Positions 1 to 27,983 are shown, numbered from the stretch's first letter. The stretch is DNA of 34,652 nucleotides from a virus (IMGVR_UViG_2541047785_000009); one strand, 5' to 3'. Notes: generated by a model from the sequence alone, not told the origin. Program-made: numbers and translations.

Positions 1-1362
1 ATGTTTAAACCGGAACTCCTTTCCCCGGCGGGAACGCTGAAAAATATGCGTTACGCTTTCGCTTATGGCGCAGATGCTGTTTATGCGGGCCAGCCGCGTT
101 ATTCCCTGCGTGTGCGCAACAACGAATTCAACCACGAAAATCTTCAGCTCGGCATCAATGAAGCCCACGCGCTGGGGAAAAAGTTTTATGTCGTGGTCAA
201 CATTGCACCGCACAACGCCAAGCTGAAAACCTTTATCCGTGACCTGAAACCGGTGGTGGAAATGGGGCCGGATGCGCTGATTATGTCCGATCCAGGGCTG
301 ATTATGCTGGTGCGTGAGCACTTCCCTGAAATGCCGATCCACCTTTCGGTGCAGGCTAACGCCGTGAACTGGGCGACGGTGAAATTCTGGCAGCAAATGG
401 GCCTGACCCGCGTGATCCTCTCTCGCGAGCTGTCGCTGGAAGAGATTGAAGAGATCCGCAATCAGGTGCCGGATATGGAGATCGAGATCTTCGTTCACGG
501 CGCGCTGTGCATGGCCTACTCCGGTCGCTGCCTGCTCTCTGGCTATATCAACAAGCGCGACCCGAACCAGGGCACCTGCACCAACGCCTGCCGCTGGGAG
601 TACAACGTCCAGGAAGGGAAAGAAGATGATGTTGGCAACATCGTACACAAGTACGAGCCGATTCCGGTGCAAAATGTTGAGCCGACGCTGGGTATCGGCG
701 CACCAACCGACAAAGTGTTTATGATCGAAGAGGCCCAGCGTCCGGGCGAGTATATGACCGCGTTTGAAGATGAGCACGGCACTTACATCATGAACTCGAA
801 AGATCTGCGCGCCATCGCCCATGTAGAACGCCTGACCAAAATGGGCGTGCATTCGCTGAAAATCGAAGGTCGTACCAAATCTTTCTACTATTGTGCACGC
901 ACCGCACAGGTTTACCGCAAAGCTATCGATGACGCCGCTGCGGGAAAACCGTTCGATACCAGCCTGCTGGAAACTCTGGAAGGTCTGGCGCATCGTGGCT
1001 ATACCGAAGGTTTCCTGCGTCGTCATACTCACGACGATTATCAGAACTACGAATACGGTTATTCAGTTTCTGACCGCCAGCAGTTTGTTGGTGAGTTTAC
1101 CGGTGAGCGCAAGGGGGACCTCGCGGCGGTAGCGGTGAAAAATAAATTCTCCGTTGGCGACAGCCTTGAGCTGATGACGCCGCAAGGCAACATTAATTTT
1201 ACCCTTGAGCACATGGAAAACGCCAAAGGCGAAGCTATGCCGATAGCACCAGGCGATGGTTATACTGTGTGGCTCCCGGTCCCGCAGGATCTTGAGCTCA
1301 ATTACGCGCTGCTGATGCGTAATTTCTCCGGGGAAACCACGCGTAATCCCCACGGTAAGTGA
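1..1362 (+). CDS. yegQ: YegQ/TrhP, peptidase U32-family protein (host gene, complete)
   Basis: 453-aa ORF from the track, ATG at 1 and TGA at 1360-1362; protein recognised as E. coli YegQ; GC-rich host-like composition; forms the left chromosomal flank. Confidence 0.9.
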   Translation: MFKPELLSPAGTLKNMRYAFAYGADAVYAGQPRYSLRVRNNEFNHENLQLGINEAHALGKKFYVVVNIAPHNAKLKTFIRDLKPVVEMGPDALIMSDPGLIMLVREHFPEMPIHLSVQANAVNWATVKFWQQMGLTRVILSRELSLEEIEEIRNQVPDMEIEIFVHGALCMAYSGRCLLSGYINKRDPNQGTCTNACRWEYNVQEGKEDDVGNIVHKYEPIPVQNVEPTLGIGAPTDKVFMIEEAQRPGEYMTAFEDEHGTYIMNSKDLRAIAHVERLTKMGVHSLKIEGRTKSFYYCARTAQVYRKAIDDAAAGKPFDTSLLETLEGLAHRGYTEGFLRRHTHDDYQNYEYGYSVSDRQQFVGEFTGERKGDLAAVAVKNKFSVGDSLELMTPQGNINFTLEHMENAKGEAMPIAPGDGYTVWLPVPQDLELNYALLMRNFSGETTRNPHGK

Positions 1363-1506
1363 TTAATTTCGATTATTTTTCCCGGATGGAAAATTCTTAG
1401 AAACCGATCACATACAGCTGCATTTATTAAGGTTATCATCCGTTTCGCTGAAAAACATAACCCATAAAATGCTAGCTGTACCAGGAACCACCTCCTTAGC
1501 CTGTGT

Positions 1507-1534
1507 AATCTCCCTTACACGGGCTTATTTTTTA
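1507..1534. repeat. attL core: AATCTCCCTTACACGGGCTTATTTTTTA, direct repeat of 34150..34177
   Basis: 28-nt perfect identity with 34150..34177; the first 27 nt are the reverse complement of the P2 att core as I recall it (AAAAAATAAGCCCGTGTAAGGGAGATT). Confidence 0.85.
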
Positions 1535-1596
1535 CGCGTAATACAATGAAATAAAAGGATTTATTTCTGGTCACGTCCACACATTGACCACATCGA

Positions 1597-1621
1597 CAAA
1601 AAAGCCCCTCGACTGAGGGGC
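1597..1621 (-). terminator. Rho-independent terminator downstream of ogr
   Basis: Stem GCCCCTC / GAGGGGC with 4-nt loop; on the minus strand the stem is followed by a T6 run (plus-strand A run 1598-1603); lies just 3' of the ogr stop. Confidence 0.55.
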
Positions 1622-1634
1622 TTCCTGTTTGTAA

Positions 1635-1853
1635 TTACATCCACATAATTTGCTGCCCTGACGGCAACGGGTGCGGTCTTACGGCGTGGACTTCTCCCGG
1701 CTTCACGATGTATCGCTGTACCGACTCATAAGTGATGAACGTGGCGCTGCAATTCACGTTCTGACACTGGTGATAACGCTCTTTTGTCGTGTCAGTGATA
1801 TAGCGGCTTGTACGCGCATGTGCGGCATGCTGGCATAAAGGACAATGAAACAT
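1635..1853 (-). CDS. ogr: Ogr, zinc-finger late-gene transcription activator (72 aa)
   Basis: Track ORF 1635..1985 contains MFHCPLCQHAAHARTSRYITDTTKERYHQCQNVNCSATF...QQIMWM; ATG on minus strand at 1853..1851; Cys4 zinc-finger motif; the 44-aa upstream extension in the track is a longest-ORF artefact. Confidence 0.9.
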   Translation of the reverse strand: MFHCPLCQHAAHARTSRYITDTTKERYHQCQNVNCSATFITYESVQRYIVKPGEVHAVRPHPLPSGQQIMWM

Positions 1854-1935
1854 CGCGAGCACCTCTTCCGGTTTTGTTGATGGTGCCATTTTAGTTAATT
1901 TATCCTTATAAAACAAACAGATAAAATAAAAAACA

Positions 1936-3099
1936 TCACTCATCATCTTCTGTTTCGTACTCCACATCAGAAAGCCTGACCTCAAGCTCTAAGGACGTCG
2001 TGAAGCCGCTATTATTCAGAAAATGTGTCACCTTAGTGATTGTCCAGTCCTGCTCGTCTATGACGCGCTTAAAGCCTGACACTTTAACCGGTGTTTCCGT
2101 GTAAATATCAGCCCGACCGGTAGCCAGGCTGATGGAGAACTCCGCAACGCCCCGTTGCAGTTTATCCCACTTCGCCTGAGCGGCGCGCATGGCCTGCGCT
2201 TTCGTGGCATATACCGTAGTCAGGGCAAAAACATTGTCAGCCTCACCTGCCATGTATTCACCTTCGCGCGCTTCCGGTACTTTTGGCGCTTTCTTCTGCG
2301 TGACCGGTTTCGCTTTCGGGTGCTCCAGTGCGCGCAGGTGTTTCTCTTTCTTTTTGCGTTTCAGTTTTACCTTCTGCTTTTGCGGCTTCGGGTCTTTGGT
2401 GTGTAACCACTTTGCCGTTACGCCGGTGTAGGCTCCACGGTCAGCAATCGCAAAATGATGGCGGTCACCGTCGCTGCGGGTGATGGTGACCTGCGGGATT
2501 TTTTTACCGCTGGCCGTCACCCCCTGCCCCGCTTTGAGAAACAGCAGTTTTCCCATTTTTACCGACACCTCACCGCCGTTGCGTTCTGCAAGACGGGTCA
2601 GAAATTTCGCATCAGACTCCTGCGACTGGTCGATGTGCGGGATTTTAATTCCGGCCAGTGACGGAGCGACACTGGCTTCCAGCCTGTTACGGGAGGCTAT
2701 CGCCTCAACAATCGCACCGAGCGTGGTGTCATGCCATGAGCCTTCACGGCGGGAATTGAGCGTCCCGCGAAAATCTGCACTCCGGGCGCGGATGGTGACC
2801 ACATCCGGTGCGCCCCGGTGTTCAACCTCATCAACGGTAAATTTCCCTTTGCATACCAGGGCAAAACCTTTCCAGCCGATATACACCGTCAGGACAGCGC
2901 CACGAATCGGTAGTCCGACCTGCCCGTCGGCATCGTTCAGTTCAATATCAAGCTGGTCAGCCTCAAAGCCCCGGTTATCCGTCAGGGTCATGCTCATCAG
3001 ACGGTCGCTGATATTGCCGGTAATATCCCTGCTGTCGAGCATCAGCATGTAATCCGGCGTCAGCGTACTGCCTGCATCAAATGTCAGTGCATCCAGCAT
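1936..3099 (-). CDS. D: Tail protein D (P2 gpD-like)
   Basis: 387-aa ORF; sequence and position (between ogr and U) match P2 gpD; start overlaps the U stop. Confidence 0.9.
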   Translation of the reverse strand: MLDALTFDAGSTLTPDYMLMLDSRDITGNISDRLMSMTLTDNRGFEADQLDIELNDADGQVGLPIRGAVLTVYIGWKGFALVCKGKFTVDEVEHRGAPDVVTIRARSADFRGTLNSRREGSWHDTTLGAIVEAIASRNRLEASVAPSLAGIKIPHIDQSQESDAKFLTRLAERNGGEVSVKMGKLLFLKAGQGVTASGKKIPQVTITRSDGDRHHFAIADRGAYTGVTAKWLHTKDPKPQKQKVKLKRKKKEKHLRALEHPKAKPVTQKKAPKVPEAREGEYMAGEADNVFALTTVYATKAQAMRAAQAKWDKLQRGVAEFSISLATGRADIYTETPVKVSGFKRVIDEQDWTITKVTHFLNNSGFTTSLELEVRLSDVEYETEDDE

Positions 3100-3578
3100 T
3101 ATCCCGCCCTCGTCATACCTGTGAATCTGGTCGCCATACTGCCGGCCTTACCGATGAGCGACTCCGCCTGTTTACCGATATCGCCATAAAGCGCGGCCAG
3201 TGATTCATCAACGCGGGTGAGCGACAGCGTAAAATCAATTTTCCGGGGTGTGCCGTCTGCAAAGAAAATACTCCCTGTTTCACTCACCTTGCTGATGACA
3301 TACATGCCGTAAATCATGCCGGTGCCATCCAGCAACGGCCACGCCCGGCCTTCCTCTGCCATCAGCCTGAGCGTGGTCATCGTCAGCTTTCCGCCGGTCA
3401 GTTCGGGATAAAGCACACCGGCAAGCGTGATGTTTTCCTCACCCACACCGAGAAACTGAAAGGCATCCCGTTTACCGATACGGGAATTTGACGGCCAGCG
3501 ATAATCTGATTCACGCTGCATGGTCTGGTGTGGCAGCGTCTGGCGCATAAAAACAAACATACCTAACGCGAGCATCAT
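3099..3578 (-). CDS. U: Tail protein U (P2 gpU-like)
   Basis: 159-aa ORF in the P2 gpU position, sequence recognised. Confidence 0.9.
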   Translation of the reverse strand: MMLALGMFVFMRQTLPHQTMQRESDYRWPSNSRIGKRDAFQFLGVGEENITLAGVLYPELTGGKLTMTTLRLMAEEGRAWPLLDGTGMIYGMYVISKVSETGSIFFADGTPRKIDFTLSLTRVDESLAALYGDIGKQAESLIGKAGSMATRFTGMTRAG

Positions 3579-3592
3579 TTTTCGTCACCTCC

Positions 3593-6040
3593 TTAACCGT
3601 CATGCATCATGCTGGCACGGGCGCGCGCACGTTTATCCCGCTCGTATTTTTCGAGCGCATCCTGTAACTGGCGGTCAAGCTGTGTCCCCGGCGCAGTACC
3701 ACCCGTCAGGCTGATGTGATATTCGTTTTTACTCTGGTCTACATAAGAGCGGCCAGCCGGTGCCGTGACCGGCTGATAAGCCTGATAGCCTGCATAAGAG
3801 CTGGTCGCCGGAATATAACCACCGGTGCCATACGTGGCGGCATTAGTCCTTGCGGCGGTCTGGTCAAGTGTGTCTGACTCTTTGTTGATAACACCGAGTT
3901 TTTCCAGTACCCAGTCAATACCACTGCGCAGTTTGTTGAACGCATTAAGCGGCAGCATCAACGCGTCAGCCAGTGCCTGCCCGAACATGACGCCCGTGTC
4001 ACGGCAACGGTTCAGGGTGTCCTGTGTGGCTTTAACCGGGGCAATCAGGTTTTTAAACCACTGCCACGCGGCCTGTAACTTTTCACCCAGCCAGTCAAAC
4101 ACCGGTTTAAGTGGCGTGAACAGTTCCCCCACCGGCGCAAATGCCGCTTTCAGCCCTTCCACCACACCGCCAAAGAATGCGCTGACAGGCTCCCAGTATT
4201 TACGGATAAGCAACGCCCCGGCGACAATGGCGGCCACCACGGCCACAACCGGCCAGCTAATCGCCCCGACGGCCGTCATAACAGCACTGCCAACCGTCGT
4301 GAAGATTGCCCCCATTGCGCCTGCTGCCGCGATGATGGCATTGATGCCAGTGATAACCGGCCAGGCTACAAGACCAATGGCACCGATGATGCCAGTCAGC
4401 ACCAGTGCACCGCCGGCAATGATGCCGATGGTTGACGCCAGTGATTTGTTTTTCTGTATCCAGCCGTCGAGTTTTAACACATACTTTGTGGCCGTCTGCG
4501 TGAGCTTACGCAGTGCGCCTTCCTGCTGGTCAAACAGGTCAGTCCCCACCGCCTCATAAGCGGACTGAAACTCCTTAAAGTCACCGCCGAGATTGTCCTG
4601 CATGATATTTACCAGCTCTGAGGTCTTCCCGTCCGAGGCTTTAAACGCAGCGGTCAGTTTGTCCAGCTTTCCGGTTGAGGCGGCAGTCATCAGCACGGCG
4701 GCGGCTGAGCTGGCCTCCTCCCCGAAAATGGTTTTCATGTATTCAGCCTGCTGGGCAGTACCGAGCCGGTTTTTCTCAAAACTGGCCTGCATTTCTTTCA
4801 GAATGGTAAATACTGGTCGGGTATTCCCTTTACTGTCTGAGGTTTTCACGCCAAGCTCTTTGAGTGCATCCCATGCTTTTCCCGTCGGTGCCTGCAGGCG
4901 GCTTAACACGGCACGGCTTCCCGTCCCCGCCATTGAACCGGTAATTTTTGCATCATGCAGTGCCCCGACCATTGCGGCGGTTTCTTCAATGCTGACACCG
5001 GCATTTTTTGCCACAGGTGCGGCATAGGTCAGCGCATCGCTCATGCCGTCAAAATCGGCGGCGGTTCTGTTCATCGTCATGGAGAGAACATCCCCGATAT
5101 GAGCGACCTTATCGTTTGAAAGCTGAAAGGCGGATTTCATCCCCATCAGCAGGGCGGCGTTTTCTTCCATCGTGCGGCGGTTCGCCAGCGCCATATTCAG
5201 CGTGACCGGCGTTGCCGCCTGAATGGCATCAACATCCCCACCCGCTTTCGCGATGATTATCTGTGCACCGGCCGCATCATCCGCCGAGGCGGCGGTATTG
5301 TCGCCGAGCTGGCGCGCCTGTTTGCGTAGTGCGGTCATTTCGGCGGAGTCTTTTGCCACTCCGAGCACGGCCTGCAATTCTGAGTTTTTCTGCGCAAACT
5401 CATAACCGGGCATCAGCAACTTAACTCCGGCCATCGTTCCCGCCGCCGCAATCCCCACACCGGCAGCGCCCACTGAGGCCATATTTCCGGCCAGTTCCTT
5501 TCCGGCCTGATAACGCTGTTTTACTGCGTTAAGTTTTGCCTGTTGCGCACTGACACGCGCCAGCGCGTCACGCTGACGGTTAAGCTGTGCGGTGGTTTCA
5601 CTGATACGGTTTTTCAGTCCCTGCTCATCATGTGCAAGATTGCGGGTATTAATTCCCACAACGGCCAGTTCCCGCTGCTGGCGTTTAACGGAATCCGTCA
5701 GGCGGTTATATTTCGCCTGTAAGTCCTCCGCCGCACGCTTTGCGGATTCCAGCACTTTCGCCTGAGCACGTGTCGGACGTTCGGTGTTTTTAAACTGTGT
5801 GGCAAGGGCTTCGGCCTCCTGCCGTGCCTTTTCAAGTGCATGACCAGTCACGGCGAGCTGTGCACTGGTCTTGCGGAATCCCTCAATACGGGATGCGTGA
5901 CCGTTCAGCTCGCGCAGTGATTTTTGTGTTTCCCGGATATCCCCCGACAGCGACCTGCTCGCTGTACGGATGGATTTAAACGGGCGGGATGCCTGGTCAA
6001 CAGCCCTGAGCAATACCTGTAATTTTACATTGTTACTCAT
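3593..6040 (-). CDS. T: Tail tape measure protein T
   Basis: 815-aa ORF, same length as P2 gpT; Ala/Gly-rich with hydrophobic segments; immediately downstream of E/E'. Confidence 0.9.
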   Translation of the reverse strand: MSNNVKLQVLLRAVDQASRPFKSIRTASRSLSGDIRETQKSLRELNGHASRIEGFRKTSAQLAVTGHALEKARQEAEALATQFKNTERPTRAQAKVLESAKRAAEDLQAKYNRLTDSVKRQQRELAVVGINTRNLAHDEQGLKNRISETTAQLNRQRDALARVSAQQAKLNAVKQRYQAGKELAGNMASVGAAGVGIAAAGTMAGVKLLMPGYEFAQKNSELQAVLGVAKDSAEMTALRKQARQLGDNTAASADDAAGAQIIIAKAGGDVDAIQAATPVTLNMALANRRTMEENAALLMGMKSAFQLSNDKVAHIGDVLSMTMNRTAADFDGMSDALTYAAPVAKNAGVSIEETAAMVGALHDAKITGSMAGTGSRAVLSRLQAPTGKAWDALKELGVKTSDSKGNTRPVFTILKEMQASFEKNRLGTAQQAEYMKTIFGEEASSAAAVLMTAASTGKLDKLTAAFKASDGKTSELVNIMQDNLGGDFKEFQSAYEAVGTDLFDQQEGALRKLTQTATKYVLKLDGWIQKNKSLASTIGIIAGGALVLTGIIGAIGLVAWPVITGINAIIAAAGAMGAIFTTVGSAVMTAVGAISWPVVAVVAAIVAGALLIRKYWEPVSAFFGGVVEGLKAAFAPVGELFTPLKPVFDWLGEKLQAAWQWFKNLIAPVKATQDTLNRCRDTGVMFGQALADALMLPLNAFNKLRSGIDWVLEKLGVINKESDTLDQTAARTNAATYGTGGYIPATSSYAGYQAYQPVTAPAGRSYVDQSKNEYHISLTGGTAPGTQLDRQLQDALEKYERDKRARARASMMHDG

Positions 6041-6460
6041 TCGTGTTTCCGCTTCGCCGGAGCGCCTTTTCGCGCCATGTGATGAGTTCGGTCAGGCTCA
6101 TGGGATACAGTTCTGATGGCGGCCAGTGAAATATCACAGCCACATCCGCCATCAGGTCATCGACCGAGAGATTTTTCGGAAACGTCACTGCACCGAGTTC
6201 GGCGACAAAAAACCGACCACCTTACCGGCCAGCGCCACAAGGTCAGGCAGTTCCAGCGCGGCGACCTCCTGCTCGGTCAGCATCGGTGCCGTCATGCGCG
6301 GCAGCACTTTAATCAGTGCATCGACTTCGGAGTTTGCGACCGCAGCCAGACTGACACCGCGCAGCGTCCCGGCACTGGGTTTCATCAGCGTGACCTGTTC
6401 GATAACCTGCTCACCACGCTTGACCGGATTGTCCAGGGTAATCACATTTTCTTTGTTCAT
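6033..6460 (-). CDS. E': Tail assembly chaperone E+E' (programmed -1 frameshift product, about 141-142 aa)
   Basis: Minus-strand GG T TTT TTG at 6214..6206; after a -1 slip the frame reads VAELGAVTFPKNLSVDDLMADVAVIFHWPPSELYPMSLTELITWREKALRRSGNTNE and stops at TAA 6035..6033, overlapping the start of T (6040); worked out by hand from the sequence. Confidence 0.75.
6185..6460 (-). CDS. E: Tail assembly chaperone E (P2 gpE-like, 91 aa)
   Basis: 91-aa ORF ending ...VVGFLSPNSVQ; the slippery heptamer T TTT TTG sits 7 codons before its stop. Confidence 0.9.
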   Translation of the reverse strand: MNKENVITLDNPVKRGEQVIEQVTLMKPSAGTLRGVSLAAVANSEVDALIKVLPRMTAPMLTEQEVAALELPDLVALAGKVVGFLSPNSVQ

Positions 6461-6517
6461 GGTTTTCTCACTTCTGAATCGGGGGTTAACCGGTCAGCCT
6501 GGCTGACCGGATGAAAA

Positions 6518-7036
6518 TCACAGGCCGATATTGCGGCGGTGTTGCTCCAGCCGGTCGACGCCGTTCACCTTCTCAATCATGTTGATGGTGTCAATTTCGA
6601 CCAGCTCCTTACCGTCCATCGTCAGCCGGAAATAGGTGCAGACCACGGAGATTTTCGACTCGGTGTCTTCTCCCTGTTTACCCTCACCGGTGTCGATTTC
6701 TTTCTGACGGCCACGCATGACCACTTCGACGGCCACCGTTTCGCCGGTATCGTCGCGCTGGTAAGAGCCTGCAAAACGAATCGGCACGGCATCCACGCCG
6801 GTTGCGGCGTAAAGCTCCCAGATAACCGAATCCGGGAAGCCCCCGAGCGACCACTCCATTGACAGCGCATCGTCATCAAGGCCGAGGTCTACCGGTGCGC
6901 TGCCGTTCATCCCCGCACCGCGATAGTTTTCGAGCTTACGGGTCAGTTTTGGCAGCGTGACGGACTTTGCAACGCCCTGATAGCTGTAGCCGTTCAGAAA
7001 GACGTTCATTAACTTGAGTTTGCGCGGCATTGCCAT
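6518..7036 (-). CDS. FII: Tail tube protein FII
   Basis: 172-aa ORF, P2 gpFII length and position. Confidence 0.9.
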   Translation of the reverse strand: MAMPRKLKLMNVFLNGYSYQGVAKSVTLPKLTRKLENYRGAGMNGSAPVDLGLDDDALSMEWSLGGFPDSVIWELYAATGVDAVPIRFAGSYQRDDTGETVAVEVVMRGRQKEIDTGEGKQGEDTESKISVVCTYFRLTMDGKELVEIDTINMIEKVNGVDRLEQHRRNIGL

Positions 7037-7048
7037 CGGTCAGGCTCC

Positions 7049-8239
7049 TTAATTGCTGTTAACCGAGGTGACCAGATTTGCCAGGTATTTATCGGTAATA
7101 CGCTGGCGCAGGGTCAGGTTTTCAAGAGGAGGCACCGGGGTATAGTCATAGTCGATATACAGTTTTCCGGCCTTGAGGGTTTCCGCATCGTTGGATTCTT
7201 CGCTGAACCAGCAGGTCGCATCCACGATATAGCCGTTTGTTTTCAGCTCACGGAATTTGGCATTGATGCCGTCAACGATGTCGCGAATCAGCGTTGCAGT
7301 GATGGGCTTGTCCACCGCCCACATGTGCGCCTCAGCCATCGTGTCGGCCAGCACCTGCGCGGTGCGGGTGTAGTTTTCAAAGAGGAACAGCGGGTCATCA
7401 GAGCAGGTACGGTTACCCCAGAAGCGGAAACCGTCACGGCGAATCAGTGTTGTGACGCCTGACTCGTTAAGCAGGTCAGCATCGGTGCCGGACTCCTGCA
7501 AATCCCAGAATACAGATGCGCTGATGCCGGTAACACCGTTTACCCCGACGTTGGACAGCGTTTTATGCCAGCCCTGCTCCTGGTCGATTTTAGCGCGCAG
7601 ACCCAGCGCACGGGCGGTAGCATACGCGGTGGCGGTGGTACTGGTGACCGTATCCCATGCGAGGAAATCCGGCCAGATGACCATCAGCTCACGCTGGCTG
7701 AAATTCTGGCGGTAGGCTTTCACCTCGGAAATGGTTTTACAGCCCCATGCGCTGATATATCCGAAAGCGCGCAGCTTCTGACAGACTGATGCCAGTGCAA
7801 CAGCCACCTCTTTGGTATCCAGCCCCGGCACACCAAGAATACGCGGTTTAACACCGGTTACCGACTCCGCCGCCAGCAGGGCTTTCAGTCCGGTGTACTG
7901 ACCGTTTTCGTCAGTGGTGCCGATGATATTGGAAACGGTCTGCGCGAGTTTCGTTTCCTCGTCATCACCGGTGCCGTCTTCCACGCGCACGACAACGGTG
8001 ACCGGTTTTGACTGGTCAGCGATGGCCTGCAACGATGCCGCCAGCGTGCCTTTTTTACCGGCCTTTGCAATTGCGCTCTGCACATTGGTAATCAGTACAG
8101 GTTTATTGAGGGGAAAGGTTTCCGCATCCGCATCGCTGGCCGTGCAGACCATGCCGACAATGGCAGTGGATACGGTGGAAATGACGCGGGTGCCGTCGTT
8201 AATCTCCAGCACCTGCACGCCATGATGATAGTCACTCAT
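7049..8239 (-). CDS. FI: Tail sheath protein FI
   Basis: 396-aa ORF, P2 gpFI length and position. Confidence 0.92.
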   Translation of the reverse strand: MSDYHHGVQVLEINDGTRVISTVSTAIVGMVCTASDADAETFPLNKPVLITNVQSAIAKAGKKGTLAASLQAIADQSKPVTVVVRVEDGTGDDEETKLAQTVSNIIGTTDENGQYTGLKALLAAESVTGVKPRILGVPGLDTKEVAVALASVCQKLRAFGYISAWGCKTISEVKAYRQNFSQRELMVIWPDFLAWDTVTSTTATAYATARALGLRAKIDQEQGWHKTLSNVGVNGVTGISASVFWDLQESGTDADLLNESGVTTLIRRDGFRFWGNRTCSDDPLFLFENYTRTAQVLADTMAEAHMWAVDKPITATLIRDIVDGINAKFRELKTNGYIVDATCWFSEESNDAETLKAGKLYIDYDYTPVPPLENLTLRQRITDKYLANLVTSVNSN

Positions 8240-8330
8240 CCGTTTAACTCCGTGGTTAATGGGTGCAACTATTTTCCGTTGGGTAGTACATGAGACGCTA
8301 TTTGACCTGGCTGGTCAGTGGATGAAACAA

Positions 8331-8363
8331 CAGATAAAGAAAAGGCGGGCAACCAGCCCGCCT
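8331..8363 (-). terminator. Putative rho-independent terminator separating the V-G operon from the FI operon
   Basis: Stem AGGCGGGC / GCCCGCCT (8343-8350 / 8356-8363) with 5-nt loop; on the minus strand followed by TTTTCTTTATC. Confidence 0.45.
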
Positions 8364-8460
8364 GTCCTGATTTGTACTCACTCATTTTCCAACTGACTAT
8401 TACATAGCCCAAACGCTATCAAATCTGACAGTCTGCTTTGAGCGAGCAGCGGAAGAAATC

Positions 8461-8489
8461 TTTACACAGAGATGAAAATTATCGAAAAT
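8461..8489 (+). promoter_or_regulatory. Candidate sigma70-type promoter for the Z/fun-slot cargo gene
   Basis: TTTACA (8461-8466), 17-nt spacer, GAAAAT (8484-8489); AT-rich region about 70 nt upstream of an RBS GGAGAGAG and the ATG at 8561; weak -10, so tentative. Confidence 0.25.
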
Positions 8490-8560
8490 AGCTCTACGCG
8501 GCTGAGCGGGATGCTTATCATAAATTTGGTTTATGGTTTGTTTTAGTTCTGGAGAGAGAA

Positions 8561-9781
8561 ATGATTGATTTCATAACTACTAATACAGGGATTGTATTGA
8601 AATATGTTCCAGAAACAGCAGGTACATCTTGGGTTTGGAATGAATTAAAAACTCATTCAACTGTAACAATTTCTAAAGTTTTTTATTTTAATATTAGCGA
8701 TCTGCTCAATCCTCCGTCACCAAATCAAGATTTTGATAGTTATTTTTATGAGTTTCAGTTTGGAACTTTTAGTGGTGATTATATTGTTATACCAAGTTAT
8801 ATTTTAAATATTCAAAATGATTTATATATAAGTAAAGATATCAATCTTAGTAGGAGCGTCTTTGCTGCAGAGCGTAATATTTCTATTTTTGGTCGACTCT
8901 CGCGAATATTGAATCACAGCAATCCAATTTATATTGGCGGGGATTCTGCGGAGGCAATACCTTCTAATGTTTTTAGTGAGTTATTAAGCAAATTTCCTAA
9001 CTCGTACGAAGTAGATAAATATGCCGATGCTAGAGTACATACGATTCTTGAGCAATATTTGGAAGGCATGAAAGATGCCAGAGGCCTCTACGAAACATAT
9101 CTCAATAAAATAGAACCAATTAGAAAAAGTAATCTCGACTTAACAACTATCAAAGAATTAGAAATAGAAAAATACACTTTAATTAGAGATACCATTGAGA
9201 ATGCTTTAAGTACGAAACAGCACTGGTCCGAAAAAGATTGGCAAAAATTGATGGTGCAATTCCTTCTTCTTTTATTTCCAAAGTATATTCATATTATTGA
9301 AAACATTACCATCCATGATTACTACAGCATCCCAGGCGAGAAAAAAGATCGATACATAGATATAGGCTTGGTTGATTCTAATGGTAATTTAGATATTATC
9401 GAAGTTAAAAAGCCATTTGACGACAAGATCTTGCGCAGGACAAAGTATAGAGGAAATAGCATACCAACGTCTGAGCTAAGCGGTGGTATCATGCAAGCTG
9501 AAAAATATCTCTTCCATTTATCAAAATGGGGAACAAAAGGTGAAGACAACCTTACAAAAAAATATGCAAGTGAACTACCCTCTGGTATGAGCATTCATAT
9601 TTCTAACCCCAAGGCTATCATCATAGTTGGACGTGACCAAATTGGTAATGGAAATATGACAGAAAATCAAAAACTTGATTTCGAAATTATCAAGCGGAAG
9701 TATACCAATATGATGGACATCATTACCTACGATGACCTATTGAGACGGCTTAACCGTACAATTTCAGCACTTAAAAAGTAA
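8561..9781 (+). CDS. Cargo gene in Z/fun slot: 406-aa putative PD-(D/E)xK-family nuclease (restriction-endonuclease-like C-terminal domain); candidate anti-phage defence protein
   Basis: AT-rich ORF on the opposite strand to the flanking tail genes; RBS GGAGAGAG 5 nt before the ATG; C-terminal motif RYIDIGLVDSNGNLDIIEVKKP (D267, D272, E281-x-K283) followed by QAEKY (Q312, Y316), matching the hhhD...hhhExK plus QxxxY pattern of PD-(D/E)xK nucleases such as NucS/Hjc and Shedu DUF4263; N-terminal 250 aa has no recognisable motif. Confidence 0.8.
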   Translation: MIDFITTNTGIVLKYVPETAGTSWVWNELKTHSTVTISKVFYFNISDLLNPPSPNQDFDSYFYEFQFGTFSGDYIVIPSYILNIQNDLYISKDINLSRSVFAAERNISIFGRLSRILNHSNPIYIGGDSAEAIPSNVFSELLSKFPNSYEVDKYADARVHTILEQYLEGMKDARGLYETYLNKIEPIRKSNLDLTTIKELEIEKYTLIRDTIENALSTKQHWSEKDWQKLMVQFLLLLFPKYIHIIENITIHDYYSIPGEKKDRYIDIGLVDSNGNLDIIEVKKPFDDKILRRTKYRGNSIPTSELSGGIMQAEKYLFHLSKWGTKGEDNLTKKYASELPSGMSIHISNPKAIIIVGRDQIGNGNMTENQKLDFEIIKRKYTNMMDIITYDDLLRRLNRTISALKK

Positions 9782-9834
9782 GGGCATTTTAGAAACGAAT
9801 GCCTAGTTACAATACGTTAGTATAATTTTGAAAA

Positions 9835-9885
9835 TGTCCGCTACTGGCACAGAGCGGACTGTCAGATTAGGCTTTACTCTGTGCC
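9835..9885. other. Palindromic region between convergent cargo gene and G (possible bidirectional terminator)
   Basis: Alternative stems GTCCGCT/AGCGGAC (9835-9841 / 9853-9859) and GGCACAGAG/CTCTGTGCC (9846-9854 / 9877-9885); no clean T run, so the terminator role is tentative. Confidence 0.3.
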
Positions 9886-9920
9886 ATAGATATGTAAGCT
9901 CCCACCAGAGCTCATACAAC

Positions 9921-10448
9921 TTATTGCGGCATTTCCGGCCATTCAGGATTTGCAGGATCCACACGACTGACCAGAACGCTGTAGCGTTCCCATGCTTCCA
10001 GTCGGCTACGCTCCGCATCTGTTGCCATGTTCAGTCTGACCGCGCGCTCCAGCGGCAAAATCACGGATTCAGCATCTGCAAGAAGTCTGGCTTTCCGAAT
10101 TTCTGCCTGCTTCTGCAATTCCTCTGCCGTATAAATTCGTTTGATCACTGTGCCATCCTTAAACATCCAGTTCCCTGAAATGTCCGCCCGTCGGTTAGCA
10201 GTAATATCCTCCACTTCAACAACACTTAATCCATCCGGTCTGATAGCTGTCACATCCTTTTCCACATAGCGGATGATATTATCTTTGTCGTACGCTATTT
10301 TTATCGTGTCATCAGCAAAATACTTTTGTTGTTCGTACCAGTTCTCACCATCTTCTGAAAAAAACCAGACAACATCAAAGTCCTTTGTCAACTGATATTG
10401 TTCAACCGTTTTTGGATTACCCGCCGTAATATTTTTTAAATGCTGCAT
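9921..10448 (-). CDS. G: Tail fibre assembly chaperone G
   Basis: 175-aa ORF, P2 gpG length and position, immediately downstream of H. Confidence 0.88.
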
Positions 10449-15207: not shown

Positions 15208-15993
15208 ATGTTCAGTGATAATGTGACTAATGCGTGGTGGTTTATCTCTTTGTATCTATTTTTATTAATAGCATTAACATTTGTTACCTTTGGTAAAAGT
15301 AATCTTATGAGGTTTATTGCACATCATTTCAATCTTGAGTATTCAGACAGAAAGTTAAAAATGCTCGACAAAAAATGGCGCGACATTCAACTATTTAAAA
15401 TAATTAACGGAATCAATGTATCAGGCATCGAAGATGTGAGAATGATACAGCAGGGGCTGATTGATGGAAAACTAAAAACATCGTATTTTTTCCTTACTCG
15501 CATCTGGGGTGACATAACAAAACCACCACACATAATTAAAACAATAATTGTAATTCTGGCCAGTATTTTTTACATTCTCCTCGCATGTTACATACACAAC
15601 GAACAATCCGTTATAGTAAGGGATGCCATAGGCATACCATATAAAAACATGATGTACTATGTTTATAGTGACAAAGTTCTTTTATCCTTCAAAAATAAAG
15701 CAGTTGAATTTAATAAAACTTATAGCCTTGCCGATTGCAAGAGACTGCAAAACGTATTTATAAAAGACACACTTCCTGAAATCGCCTGCAATAAGCTCTT
15801 ACAGCTAAACGAGGAGGACTCCGAATGGTTAAGTCAGGAGATTAAAGATAATAACAGTCACAAAAAAGCATTATTAATACTATCCCTCGTCTATTTCACT
15901 TCAGGTCTGGTTATATTCCTGTCATATACAAAATTCTTTTACGCCAATAAGAAGGTTTTAGAATACAAAGCATCAAATAAAAATCACTCATAA
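15208..15993 (+). CDS. Cargo gene in V-S (orf30) slot: 261-aa predicted integral membrane protein with 3 TM helices, unknown function
   Basis: AT-rich ORF on the opposite strand to the late genes; RBS GAGGAGAG before the ATG at 15208; hydrophobic segments at about aa 9-29, 116-140 and 232-251; no enzymatic motif recognised. Confidence 0.75.
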   Translation: MFSDNVTNAWWFISLYLFLLIALTFVTFGKSNLMRFIAHHFNLEYSDRKLKMLDKKWRDIQLFKIINGINVSGIEDVRMIQQGLIDGKLKTSYFFLTRIWGDITKPPHIIKTIIVILASIFYILLACYIHNEQSVIVRDAIGIPYKNMMYYVYSDKVLLSFKNKAVEFNKTYSLADCKRLQNVFIKDTLPEIACNKLLQLNEEDSEWLSQEIKDNNSHKKALLILSLVYFTSGLVIFLSYTKFFYANKKVLEYKASNKNHS

Positions 15994-25763: not shown

Positions 25764-27983
25764 ATGGAACTTAAATTAAAGAATATAACCAGCTATAAGA
25801 AAGATAGCTTCACGACTCTTAATCTCTCAAAAAAAATTAATATACTTTATGGTCACAACGGTTGTGGAAAATCAACCATATCTAATTATTTCTATAATCC
25901 AAATAACACGGACTACAAAGAATGCGAATGTCCTTTCATAGATACTTTTCGCCTATTGGTTTATAATACTAAGTTTGTTGAGGATAATTTTTATAATGCA
26001 AAAGAGCAAAAAGGAGTATTCACTTTAAGTAAGGAAAATGCTGACATTGAAAAAGAATTGTTGGAAAAAGAAGCTATAAGACAAGACCTACTTACAAAAT
26101 ACAAAGATAAAAAAAACGTTATTGAACGTTTAATTAAAGATAAAAACAATAAAGAAAATGAATATATTGATTTAATATGGAATAAAGCAGAACCTTTTAG
26201 ATCATCTGACTTAAAGAACTTGATGAAAGGTCAGTTAGGAAGCAAGAGATCATTTTATGAGCAAGTTAAAAAAGCCCCTCAAACCACTGACGTTAACATC
26301 GAGTCACTTGCTCAAGAATATAGTATTCTTTTAAAGAACAAAGATAAATTCACTGCATCAATTACACCTTTAGAAAAATATATCATTTCAGAAAAAGATA
26401 AAGAATCTTTATCCACTCCGATTATAGACTCAAGTAATAGCTATTTGTCAGAAACAATTAAACAACTTCAAAACCTTGACTGGGTGAAAAAAGGGAAGGA
26501 ATTATATTTAAATGGCACATGTTGCCCATTCTGCCAAGAAGACACTATTAAAGACAAATTTTTAGAAGCAATTGAATCTATCTTTGATGATAGCTACTCC
26601 AAGAAAGTTGACCAAATACGCATTATCAGATCGTCTTATGAATCCGCTACCATAGATAATTTAAGAAAAATAAAACAAGAGATTTCATCTTGTGAATTAA
26701 TCACCTCAAAAGAAAAAGATATAACATCATCTCATATAGCGTTATTAGAGGAAATAGCAAACAAAAACTTAAAATTGATGTTAGATAAAATCAATAACCC
26801 ATCTATATCTATTATTTTGGAATCCAATAGCGACCTTGAAGCAAAGGTAGTTGATAATATAACAGAGTACAACAATAGAATTAAAGAAATAAATATTAAA
26901 GTCAAACAATTTAAGGATAGTGAAAAGTCTATACGTTACAAAATATGGGGAGCAATAAGAGAATTATGCAACGCTGAGTTTGAAGCTTTCTCAAAATATG
27001 AGAATGACTATAAAATCATTTATGAACAATATCAACTTGAATTAAATACCATAAAAGAACAAGGAGATAACAATAGCAAAAAGATCAAAGAGCTACGCGA
27101 TCAAATATCTAACATTGATGCAACCATAGATTCTATAAATCAACGTCTAAAATTATTAGGAATTTATGGTTTTAGCATAAAAAAACACACTGAGAGCAAT
27201 GATAAATATATTATATCACGTTCTGAAAACACAACAGATAAAGATGTATACAGATCTCTTAGCGAGGGTGAAAAAACTTTAATTACCTTTCTCTACTTTC
27301 TGGAATGCTGTAAAGGTAAGACAGATAAGAATGATACGGATATGCGAGATGTATTTATCGTTATTGATGATCCAATATCCAGCCTCTCTCAAAATTATGT
27401 GTACGATATTGCTTCAATAATTCACCATGAAATAATCAACAATAACAAAGCAGTAAAGAAAACATTAATACTCACACATAACCTTTATTTCTTTCATGAA
27501 CTTATCAAATTAGCTCCTAGAAGCAAAGAAGATAGAACATTCAAGCGTGATTATTATCTTGGACGAGTAACAAAAAATGAATATAGCATAATTACAGAAA
27601 TAGAGAAAAAGAGCATTCAGAATGAATACCAGTCCCTATGGCAAGTATTAAAAGATGCGAAGGATGGAAGGGTAAATAAAGTTATAATACCTAACATCAT
27701 GAGAAATATACTGGAATACTACTTCGCATTTGTTCATAGAACGGATGCATTACAGACAGAGTTAAATAAACTTGCTAGCGATGATAAGAATAATGATTTT
27801 AGAGCATTTTATAGATACATTAATAGAGGTTCCCATTCAGATGCAGTTAATATCACAGACATGGGAGATATATCTCCAGAGAAATATATGGAGCAACTAA
27901 AAACCATTTTTCGTATGACTGGTGATGAAAAACATTATTTGAAAATGATGGACGAAGAGGAAGAGGAAACCGTTACCGCTTAG
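25764..27983 (+). CDS. Cargo gene in old/tin slot: 739-aa ABC/Rad50-like ATPase with coiled-coil CxxC zinc hook and C-terminal putative anticodon-nuclease domain (RloC/PrrC-like architecture)
   Basis: Strongly AT-rich ORF; RBS GAGG 7 nt before the ATG; Walker A G30-HN-G-C-GKST; long Lys/Glu-rich coiled-coil; C254-P-F-C257 hook; ABC signature L499-SEGEK; Walker B V530-FIVIDDP; H-loop T571-H572; C-terminal R647-x3-E651 and H691, resembling the PrrC/RloC Arg-Glu-His triad. Confidence 0.8.
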   Translation: MELKLKNITSYKKDSFTTLNLSKKINILYGHNGCGKSTISNYFYNPNNTDYKECECPFIDTFRLLVYNTKFVEDNFYNAKEQKGVFTLSKENADIEKELLEKEAIRQDLLTKYKDKKNVIERLIKDKNNKENEYIDLIWNKAEPFRSSDLKNLMKGQLGSKRSFYEQVKKAPQTTDVNIESLAQEYSILLKNKDKFTASITPLEKYIISEKDKESLSTPIIDSSNSYLSETIKQLQNLDWVKKGKELYLNGTCCPFCQEDTIKDKFLEAIESIFDDSYSKKVDQIRIIRSSYESATIDNLRKIKQEISSCELITSKEKDITSSHIALLEEIANKNLKLMLDKINNPSISIILESNSDLEAKVVDNITEYNNRIKEINIKVKQFKDSEKSIRYKIWGAIRELCNAEFEAFSKYENDYKIIYEQYQLELNTIKEQGDNNSKKIKELRDQISNIDATIDSINQRLKLLGIYGFSIKKHTESNDKYIISRSENTTDKDVYRSLSEGEKTLITFLYFLECCKGKTDKNDTDMRDVFIVIDDPISSLSQNYVYDIASIIHHEIINNNKAVKKTLILTHNLYFFHELIKLAPRSKEDRTFKRDYYLGRVTKNEYSIITEIEKKSIQNEYQSLWQVLKDAKDGRVNKVIIPNIMRNILEYYFAFVHRTDALQTELNKLASDDKNNDFRAFYRYINRGSHSDAVNITDMGDISPEKYMEQLKTIFRMTGDEKHYLKMMDEEEEETVTA

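Follow-up and report, generated by a model that had tools for sequence, protein, structure and literature searches.

The gene at positions 8561..9781 (plus strand) of the viral DNA analysed here, a stretch of 34,652 nt referred to as the window, was identified with a probability of roughly 90% as sduA, which encodes the only protein of an anti-phage system (type I Shedu, subfamily of E. coli SduA, EcSduA), belongs to the lysogenic-conversion cargo that a P2-like prophage carries in its Z/fun slot and, by homology, would act through an EcSduA-like mechanism. The identification is directly supported by the family assignment, the domain architecture, the retention of the validated residues, purifying selection and the genomic placement. 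The presence of sduA in the Z/fun slot is correct, yet it has already been published: Loeff et al. (bioRxiv 10.1101/2023.08.10.552762) name the Z/fun locus of P2 prophages as a place where Shedu systems are found, and Vassallo et al. (2022, PMC9519451) count this locus as a second hotspot of defence in P2-like phages. Moreover, the 'proviral Z-region' of P2-EC31 (AJ512677) has EcSduA as its ORF1 ('putative lysogenic conversion protein'): two different reading frames of the record align with the PDB-derived query, at 99.7% identity over residues 1-318 and 96.7% over 315-405, indicating that the model Shedu of E. coli is itself Z/fun cargo. Given these two reports and the P2-EC31 match, the central claim of a first-pass annotation of this DNA, a candidate single-gene anti-phage nuclease in this slot, was correct but already known.

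The open reading frame begins with ATG, encodes 406 aa and is preceded by a GGAG ribosome-binding site (RBS; 8551..8554) 6 nt 5' of the start codon. Its GC content is 33.5% (GC3 29%), compared with 55.8% (GC3 66%) for the adjacent FI gene and 50.4% for the whole window, and the cassette between FI and G has a GC content of 33.6%. The left boundary of the slot is formed by the P2 gpFI tail sheath gene (7049..8239, minus strand; Pfam Phage_sheath_1, 9.8e-34, and Phage_sheath_1C), and the right boundary by the P2 gpG tail-fibre assembly gene (9921..10448, minus strand; Pfam Caudo_TAP, 1.1e-32), both genes being likewise recognised at the RefSeq NCTC9088 locus. This E. coli NCTC9088 locus is 99.9% identical, its RefSeq annotation agrees, and it holds an identical protein in the same prophage position. 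Relative to phage P2, the flank on the FI side (8001-8453) was 95% identical and that on the G side 87%. With FI and G as neighbours and P2-like flanks on both sides, the gene therefore occupies the P2 Z/fun slot, and the ORF, its GC content, the Pfam neighbours and the P2 flanks all bear out the earlier description of a 406-aa, AT-rich plus-strand ORF between FI and G. In the P2 record OU784549.1, a CDS of 900 nt with no annotation beyond 'hypothetical protein' occupies the Z/fun slot; we take it to be fun(Z), a T5-exclusion gene. The tin/old slot of the prophage in the window carries an RloC/PrrC-like candidate (PDC-S06).

Profile and sequence searches converged on the Shedu family. The Pfam SduA_C profile (PF14082, formerly DUF4263) matched residues 223-394 over profile positions 3-159 of 159 with E = 7e-36 and 124.2 bits (curated cut-off, 27 bits), and the PADLOC SduA model PDLC04067 matched at full length (residues 1-406 against profile positions 1-407, E = 4.3e-234). 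Altogether 17 PADLOC SduA models matched the protein; besides PDLC04067, only PDLC00388 did so over the full length, the other 15 covering the C-terminal half only. PHROG 18241 also matched the 406-aa protein end to end. A phmmer search of PDB sequences retrieved 8PS4/8PS5, 'Shedu effector protein', over residues 3-405 (E = 3e-167) and 8PS6, a crystal structure of the isolated N-terminal domain, over residues 2-183 (E = 4.5e-61). In addition, the identical RefSeq protein WP_021534399.1, present in E. coli NCTC9088, is named 'Shedu immune nuclease family protein' and falls in cluster P0001 (173 member sequences), which bears the same NCBI name; an NCBIfam scan of the 406-aa protein returned no family despite that RefSeq name. 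The first-pass annotation, which had counted Shedu DUF4263 among its possible families, was thus right in guessing a single-gene anti-phage nuclease, now assigned as Shedu SduA by Pfam, PADLOC and PDB, and the HMM search that it had proposed as a check yielded the Pfam SduA_C and PADLOC SduA matches.

These matches divide the protein into an N-terminal DNA-end clamp domain (residues ~1-144), a helical linker (~145-192) and a DUF4263 PD-(D/E)xK nuclease domain (~193-406). The nuclease domain contains the motif R264-YIDIGLVD...IIEVKKP-285 together with Q312-AEKY-316; the D...D...ExK plus QxxxY signature noticed earlier is accordingly present, from R264 to P285 and from Q312 to 316, as a PD-(D/E)xK core. 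The N-terminal 250 residues, said earlier to match nothing recognisable, do match the SduA clamp domain (8PS6, E = 4.5e-61) and the helical linker. Within the 1383-nt interval between the two inverted repeat arms described below, sduA was the only credible ORF, as is appropriate for a single-gene system.

The closest characterised relative is EcSduA, the E. coli KTE10 protein ELC07825.1, for which the structures 8PS4, 8PS5 and 8PS6 have been determined (Loeff, Walter, Rosalen & Jinek, bioRxiv 10.1101/2023.08.10.552762). Global alignment gave 63.5% identity between the two proteins, lowest in the N-terminal domain (51%), intermediate in the linker (62.5%) and highest in the nuclease domain (72%); this identity to a characterised protein, together with the Pfam, PADLOC and PHROG matches and the RefSeq Shedu name, contradicts the earlier labels 'uncharacterised' and possible 'new variant'. 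All 13 EcSduA residues that have been tested by mutation are kept in the window protein, 11 as identical residues and two as K/R swaps. Specifically, the end-stacking W25 of EcSduA corresponds to W24, R106 and K116 of DNA-backbone patch 1 to R105 and R115, R154 and Y181 of patch 2 to K153 and Y180, and Y256 and K263 of patch 3 to Y254 and K261, so that the end-stacking Trp and patches 1-3 together comprise five identical residues and two K/R swaps. The active-site residues E226, Q230, D269, E283, K285 and Q314 correspond to E224, Q228, D267, E281, K283 and Q312. Furthermore, the six active-site residues, W24, R105, Y180, Y254 and K261 were invariant in 36 homologues sharing 64-95% identity. 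The D267A/E281A/K283A substitutions proposed in the first-pass annotation turn out to be the exact equivalents of EcSduA D269A/E283A/K285A, which abolished defence (bioRxiv 10.1101/2023.08.10.552762).

Structure prediction and comparison, likewise proposed at the outset, led to the same family. An AlphaFold2 (AF2) model built with 36 homologues reached a mean pLDDT of 78, with the linker (147-192) below 50, and Foldseek ranked the EcSduA structures 8PS5/8PS4/8PS6 first, followed by the Bacillus cereus Shedu nuclease structures 8TI8/8TI9. The match to 8PS6 had E = 1.5e-18, a TM of 0.78 on the target and 54% identity, and of the 8TI8/8TI9 matches, 8TI9_C, which is the nuclease domain by itself, fitted best (TM 0.74 on the target). 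With a whole-chain TM to 8PS4 of 0.48 and a poorly modelled linker, the AF2 model, a monomer, does not confirm how the domains are arranged. Generic PD-(D/E)xK enzymes, including the FokI cleavage domain, Card1/Can2 and NucS/EndoMS, were marginal in Foldseek (E = 0.003-0.1, 9-14% identity); membership of a NucS/Hjc-type family, which had been suggested earlier, was rejected, the likeness in Foldseek being at fold level only.

The mechanism of EcSduA has been described in detail (Loeff et al., bioRxiv 10.1101/2023.08.10.552762, for all statements in this paragraph). EcSduA is a homotetramer whose body is made up of the DUF4263 domains and whose two clamps are made up of the N-terminal domains, and the clamp is too narrow for continuous B-form DNA, taking only a free duplex end, which is stacked on W25. 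The duplex then crosses the active site and its 5' strand is nicked ~13-14 nt from the end. In vivo, linear fragments were restricted ~10-fold and circular plasmids were spared, T2 and T6 were blocked >30,000-fold without abortive infection, and phage escape mutants had lost UvsW, which is required in recombination-dependent replication. The authors also reported that EcSduA's N-terminal domain has no structural homologue outside the family, and that type I Shedu N-terminal domains are diverse and may set specificity.

With the same architecture and all of the validated residues present, this mechanism can be assigned to the window protein by homology with high confidence. The protein would form a homotetramer with a DUF4263 PD-(D/E)xK body and paired N-terminal domains as clamps, which would admit linear dsDNA only by its free ends, with the terminal base pair stacked on W24. 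End binding would place the duplex over the active site formed by E224, Q228, D267, E281, K283 and Q312 with Mg2+, where the 5' strand would be nicked ~13-14 nt from its end. Circular DNA (chromosome and plasmids) would be spared, and phages that expose linear ends during recombination-dependent replication (e.g., T-even phages) would be blocked while the host cell survives. For the window protein, homology is the sole basis for tetramer formation, for end sensing and the geometry of nicking, and for phage range and expression in the lysogen.

A different account of activation was also considered, in which the protein is a Shedu nuclease whose diverged N-terminal domain senses another trigger, such as a phage protein, or a DNA end with a certain overhang or modification, and is perhaps activated by the B. 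cereus route, in which auto-inhibition is released, octamers form and both strands are cut to leave 7-nt 3' overhangs. Such a trigger would be compatible with the N-terminal domain being just 51% identical to that of EcSduA and evolving faster than the nuclease domain (dN/dS 0.40 vs 0.11), with the diversity of type I N-terminal domains and their possible role in specificity emphasised by Loeff et al. (bioRxiv 10.1101/2023.08.10.552762), and with the other activation mode given for B. cereus Shedu by Gu et al. (PMC10441436). However, the N-terminal domain and the EcSduA clamp are clear homologues, with E = 4.5e-61 and a Foldseek TM of 0.78 (on the target) for 8PS6, the end-stacking Trp and the three DNA-backbone patches are kept, B. 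cereus Shedu resembles only the nuclease domain, with 16-18% identity, and the other PADLOC SduA models, PDLC00388 excepted, match the C-terminal half only. Homology to a B. cereus-type N-terminal domain or linker was not found, and the PDB sequence search gave EcSduA entries only. We therefore regard sensing of another trigger as improbable and favour end sensing by an EcSduA-like clamp.

Comparison with the 93.7%-identical allele of E. coli ABW_A32 demonstrated that sduA is under purifying selection, with an overall dN/dS of 0.24; the value is lower in the nuclease domain (0.11) than in the sensor domain (0.40), a difference that fits a conserved effector fused to a faster-evolving sensor. 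This selection bears on the view that sduA is a mere passenger, passively carried or in decay, that stays silent in the lysogen and is of no gain to phage or host. The chance-level promoter prediction described below, the rarity of the gene (10/5426 complete E. coli genomes, only 2/10 in the P2 context) and the two tail genes annotated as frameshifted in the NCTC9088 copy of the prophage would agree with a passenger, whereas the intact ORF with all of its catalytic and DNA-binding residues, the dN/dS of 0.24, the RBS and upstream 106 bp that accompany the gene in three unrelated contexts, and the intact 815-aa tape-measure ORF of the window all speak against it. A mere passenger is consequently very hard to credit, and a functional defence gene remains the preferred reading.

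Concerning expression, the cassette-borne upstream region (8454..8560, plus strand) comprises a candidate sigma-70 promoter found by a promoter scan and the RBS GGAG, and this region is kept in other contexts. The candidate promoter TTTACA-17-GAAAAT, proposed earlier at 8461..8489, does lie there; it matches the consensus at 9/12 positions, and the region contained nine such matches compared with 6.0 +/- 2.2 in shuffles, so that the match by itself is no better than chance. The promoter lies 7 nt in from the edge of the cassette, and the cassettes of E. coli CT282 and ABW_A32 show no change in its hexamers or spacer or in the RBS; what speaks for this putative promoter is only its position.

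The hairpins that had been thought to insulate the gene on both sides are real, but both are features of the P2 backbone flanks. The left one (8343..8363) is an intrinsic-terminator-like hairpin of the minus strand, with an 8-bp stem containing seven GC pairs followed by UUUUCUUUAU (-20.7 kcal/mol, z = -3.9), and it sits between FI and the cargo, within the conserved P2 flank. It would halt leftward transcription ahead of the FI promoter region, and would neither terminate nor insulate sduA. The right one (9845-9854/9877-9886) has a perfect 10-bp stem and no T-run on the plus strand, and lies in the conserved G-side flank, where it overlaps the right inverted arm. Moreover, sduA reads toward the end of the late tail-fibre operon and the two converge, rendering sduA expression during the prophage's own lytic cycle uncertain.

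The cassette is bracketed by two 32-nt inverted arms, one on the FI side (AATCTGACAGTCTGCTTTGAGCGAGCAGCGGA, 8422..8453), which corresponds to the 'right inverted repeat' annotated in AJ512677/AJ512685, and one on the G side (TCCGCTACTGGCACAGAGCGGACTGTCAGATT, 9837..9868), overlapping the 10-bp hairpin. The arms are 84% complementary and 1383 nt apart, and their core motif TGWGCSAGYAGCGGA occurs at two places in the window, once in each arm, and nowhere else in it. Homologous arms bracket different cargos in P2, P2-EC31 and P2-EC67, with the similarity stopping just past ...AGCGGA, and the arms are the 'left/right inverted repeats' of the 2004 GenBank records. Repeats of the Z region were reportedly described by Nilsson et al. 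in 2004 and Odegrip et al. in 2006. To our knowledge, the arms bear no resemblance to integron attC, Xer/dif or P2 attP sites.

The sduA cassette was also observed outside P2, with its arms and their 1383-nt spacing kept, in an ICE-like island of CT282 and in a defence island of ABW_A32. The gene in CT282 was 99.2% identical, with arm similarity extending to about 90 nt, and adjoined an integrase, a VbhA antitoxin and Trb conjugation genes. The gene in ABW_A32 (93.7% identical) adjoined an integrase remnant, a HEPN protein and an AAA ATPase, and six further genomes matched in the same way as ABW_A32. The cassette thus moves alone, having been found in three contexts (the P2 slot, CT282 and ABW_A32). 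Overall, sduA was detected in 10 of 5426 complete E. coli genomes, two of the ten copies lying in the P2 slot, and the Z/fun flanks carried other cargo in about 1170 complete E. coli genomes. A distant blastn search with sduA against the complete E. coli genomes returned the ten close copies only and no EcSduA-type allele.

At the protein level, full-length relatives with 59-84% identity are widespread in Proteobacteria. A protein search of genome contigs revealed 11 loci (in Pseudomonas, Rhodoferax, Hoeflea and others; 59-79% identity), of which none (0/11) had the arms; their absence from these loci of other genera indicates that the arms are tied to E. coli/P2 and not to sduA. The pattern of cassette and arms suggests an arm-mediated exchange of cassettes. 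More speculatively, and we rate this as doubtful, the arms may be the sites of an active recombination system that swaps and flips single-gene defence cassettes among P2-like prophages, ICEs and defence islands, of which the sduA cassette, with its three contexts and its orientation opposite to that of EcSduA in P2-EC31, would be an example caught in the act.

As a discovery, these results mean little, the family, structure, mechanism and even the hotspot location having been published and the identical protein being named Shedu in RefSeq. Their value for annotation is that the prophage can be described as carrying Shedu in Z/fun and an RloC/PrrC-like candidate (PDC-S06) in tin/old.

Among known systems, B. 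cereus Shedu (Doron et al. 2018; Gu et al., PMC10441436; 8TI8, 8TI9) shares with the window protein the DUF4263 PD-(D/E)xK core, membership of a tetrameric family and the union of sensor and effector in a single protein, but differs in that the identity (16-18%) is confined to the nuclease domain and the N-terminal domains are unrelated; the activation model proposed for B. cereus Shedu involves an octamer and cuts with a 7-nt 3' overhang (Gu et al., PMC10441436). P2 fun(Z) and the other Z/fun cargo (PMC9519451; AJ512677-AJ512685) resemble the sduA cassette in the G-FI slot, the flanking inverted arms and the logic of an AT-rich, single-gene lysogenic-conversion element, whereas their proteins are unrelated to SduA. 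EcSduA is alike in having the N-terminal clamp, the helical linker and the DUF4263 nuclease over its whole length, in being a single-gene system and in its location in the P2 Z/fun slot. It differs in orientation, the EcSduA gene of P2-EC31 being co-oriented with the late genes between the same flanks and sduA of the window lying opposite to them, and in its sensor domain, to which that of the window allele is 51% identical. Because the sensor domains share only this identity, the phage range of the window allele, and conceivably the exact DNA-end feature that it recognises, may differ from those of EcSduA. The window protein thus offers a natural second allele, and its comparison with EcSduA could show how the clamp domain tunes phage specificity.

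The tin/old slot, the other P2 hotspot, which is flanked by the portal gene Q on one side and the replication gene A on the other, harbored a 739-aa gene of ~28% GC on the plus strand (window 25764..27983). Its product matched Pfam AAA_13 (2.8e-102) and was spanned over its whole length by the PADLOC candidate PDC-S06 (5.6e-253); the C-terminus was PrrC-like (3.4e-14), and distant phage homologues of the gene carry the annotation 'translation-disabling ACNase' (RloC-like). This gene is probably a defence gene of the anticodon-nuclease type. In addition, a third AT-rich gene (33% GC, 261 aa, plus strand) was detected in the V-S interval at window 15208..15993, between the baseplate gene V and the tail-completion gene S. 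P2 orf30 was its homologue with 90% identity, and its product belonged to phrog_2407, the annotation of which gives no function, while Pfam and PADLOC searches returned zero matches for this protein.

The left end of the window (1..1362, plus strand) encodes a Peptidase_U32 family protein (5.2e-89) and is bacterial chromosome adjoining the prophage; therefore, the window crosses the prophage-host junction. For the tail genes, the tape-measure ORF was intact in the window (815 aa, 3593..6040), whereas in the near-identical prophage of E. coli NCTC9088 two genes, that for the tape measure and one further tail gene, were annotated as frameshifted pseudogenes (860..3801 of that locus), which may reflect assembly errors or else real decay in NCTC9088.

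The 93.7%-identical allele of the Shedu nuclease gene sduA in E. coli ABW_A32 (6050..7342 of its locus) was called by RefSeq as 430 aa, with the start placed 24 codons upstream. A TAG stop occupies the position equivalent to this start codon in the window (8489-8491), and most members of the SduA family comprise 406-408 aa. The upstream start is probably an annotation artefact.

Inverted arms flanked the Z/fun cargo at window 8422-8453 and 9837-9868, and these arms were kept among P2-like phages despite differing cargo. The sduA cassette and its arms were also present together in the ICE-like island of strain CT282 (5942-6034 and 7418-7510) and in the defence island of ABW_A32 (5992-6015 and 7399-7422), with a constant arm-to-arm spacing of 1383 nt across all three loci. 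Together with the cassette orientation, the arm conservation, joint travel and constant spacing suggest site-specific cassette exchange via a putative recombinase, the sduA cassette here being flipped relative to that of the characterised EcSduA in prophage P2-EC31.
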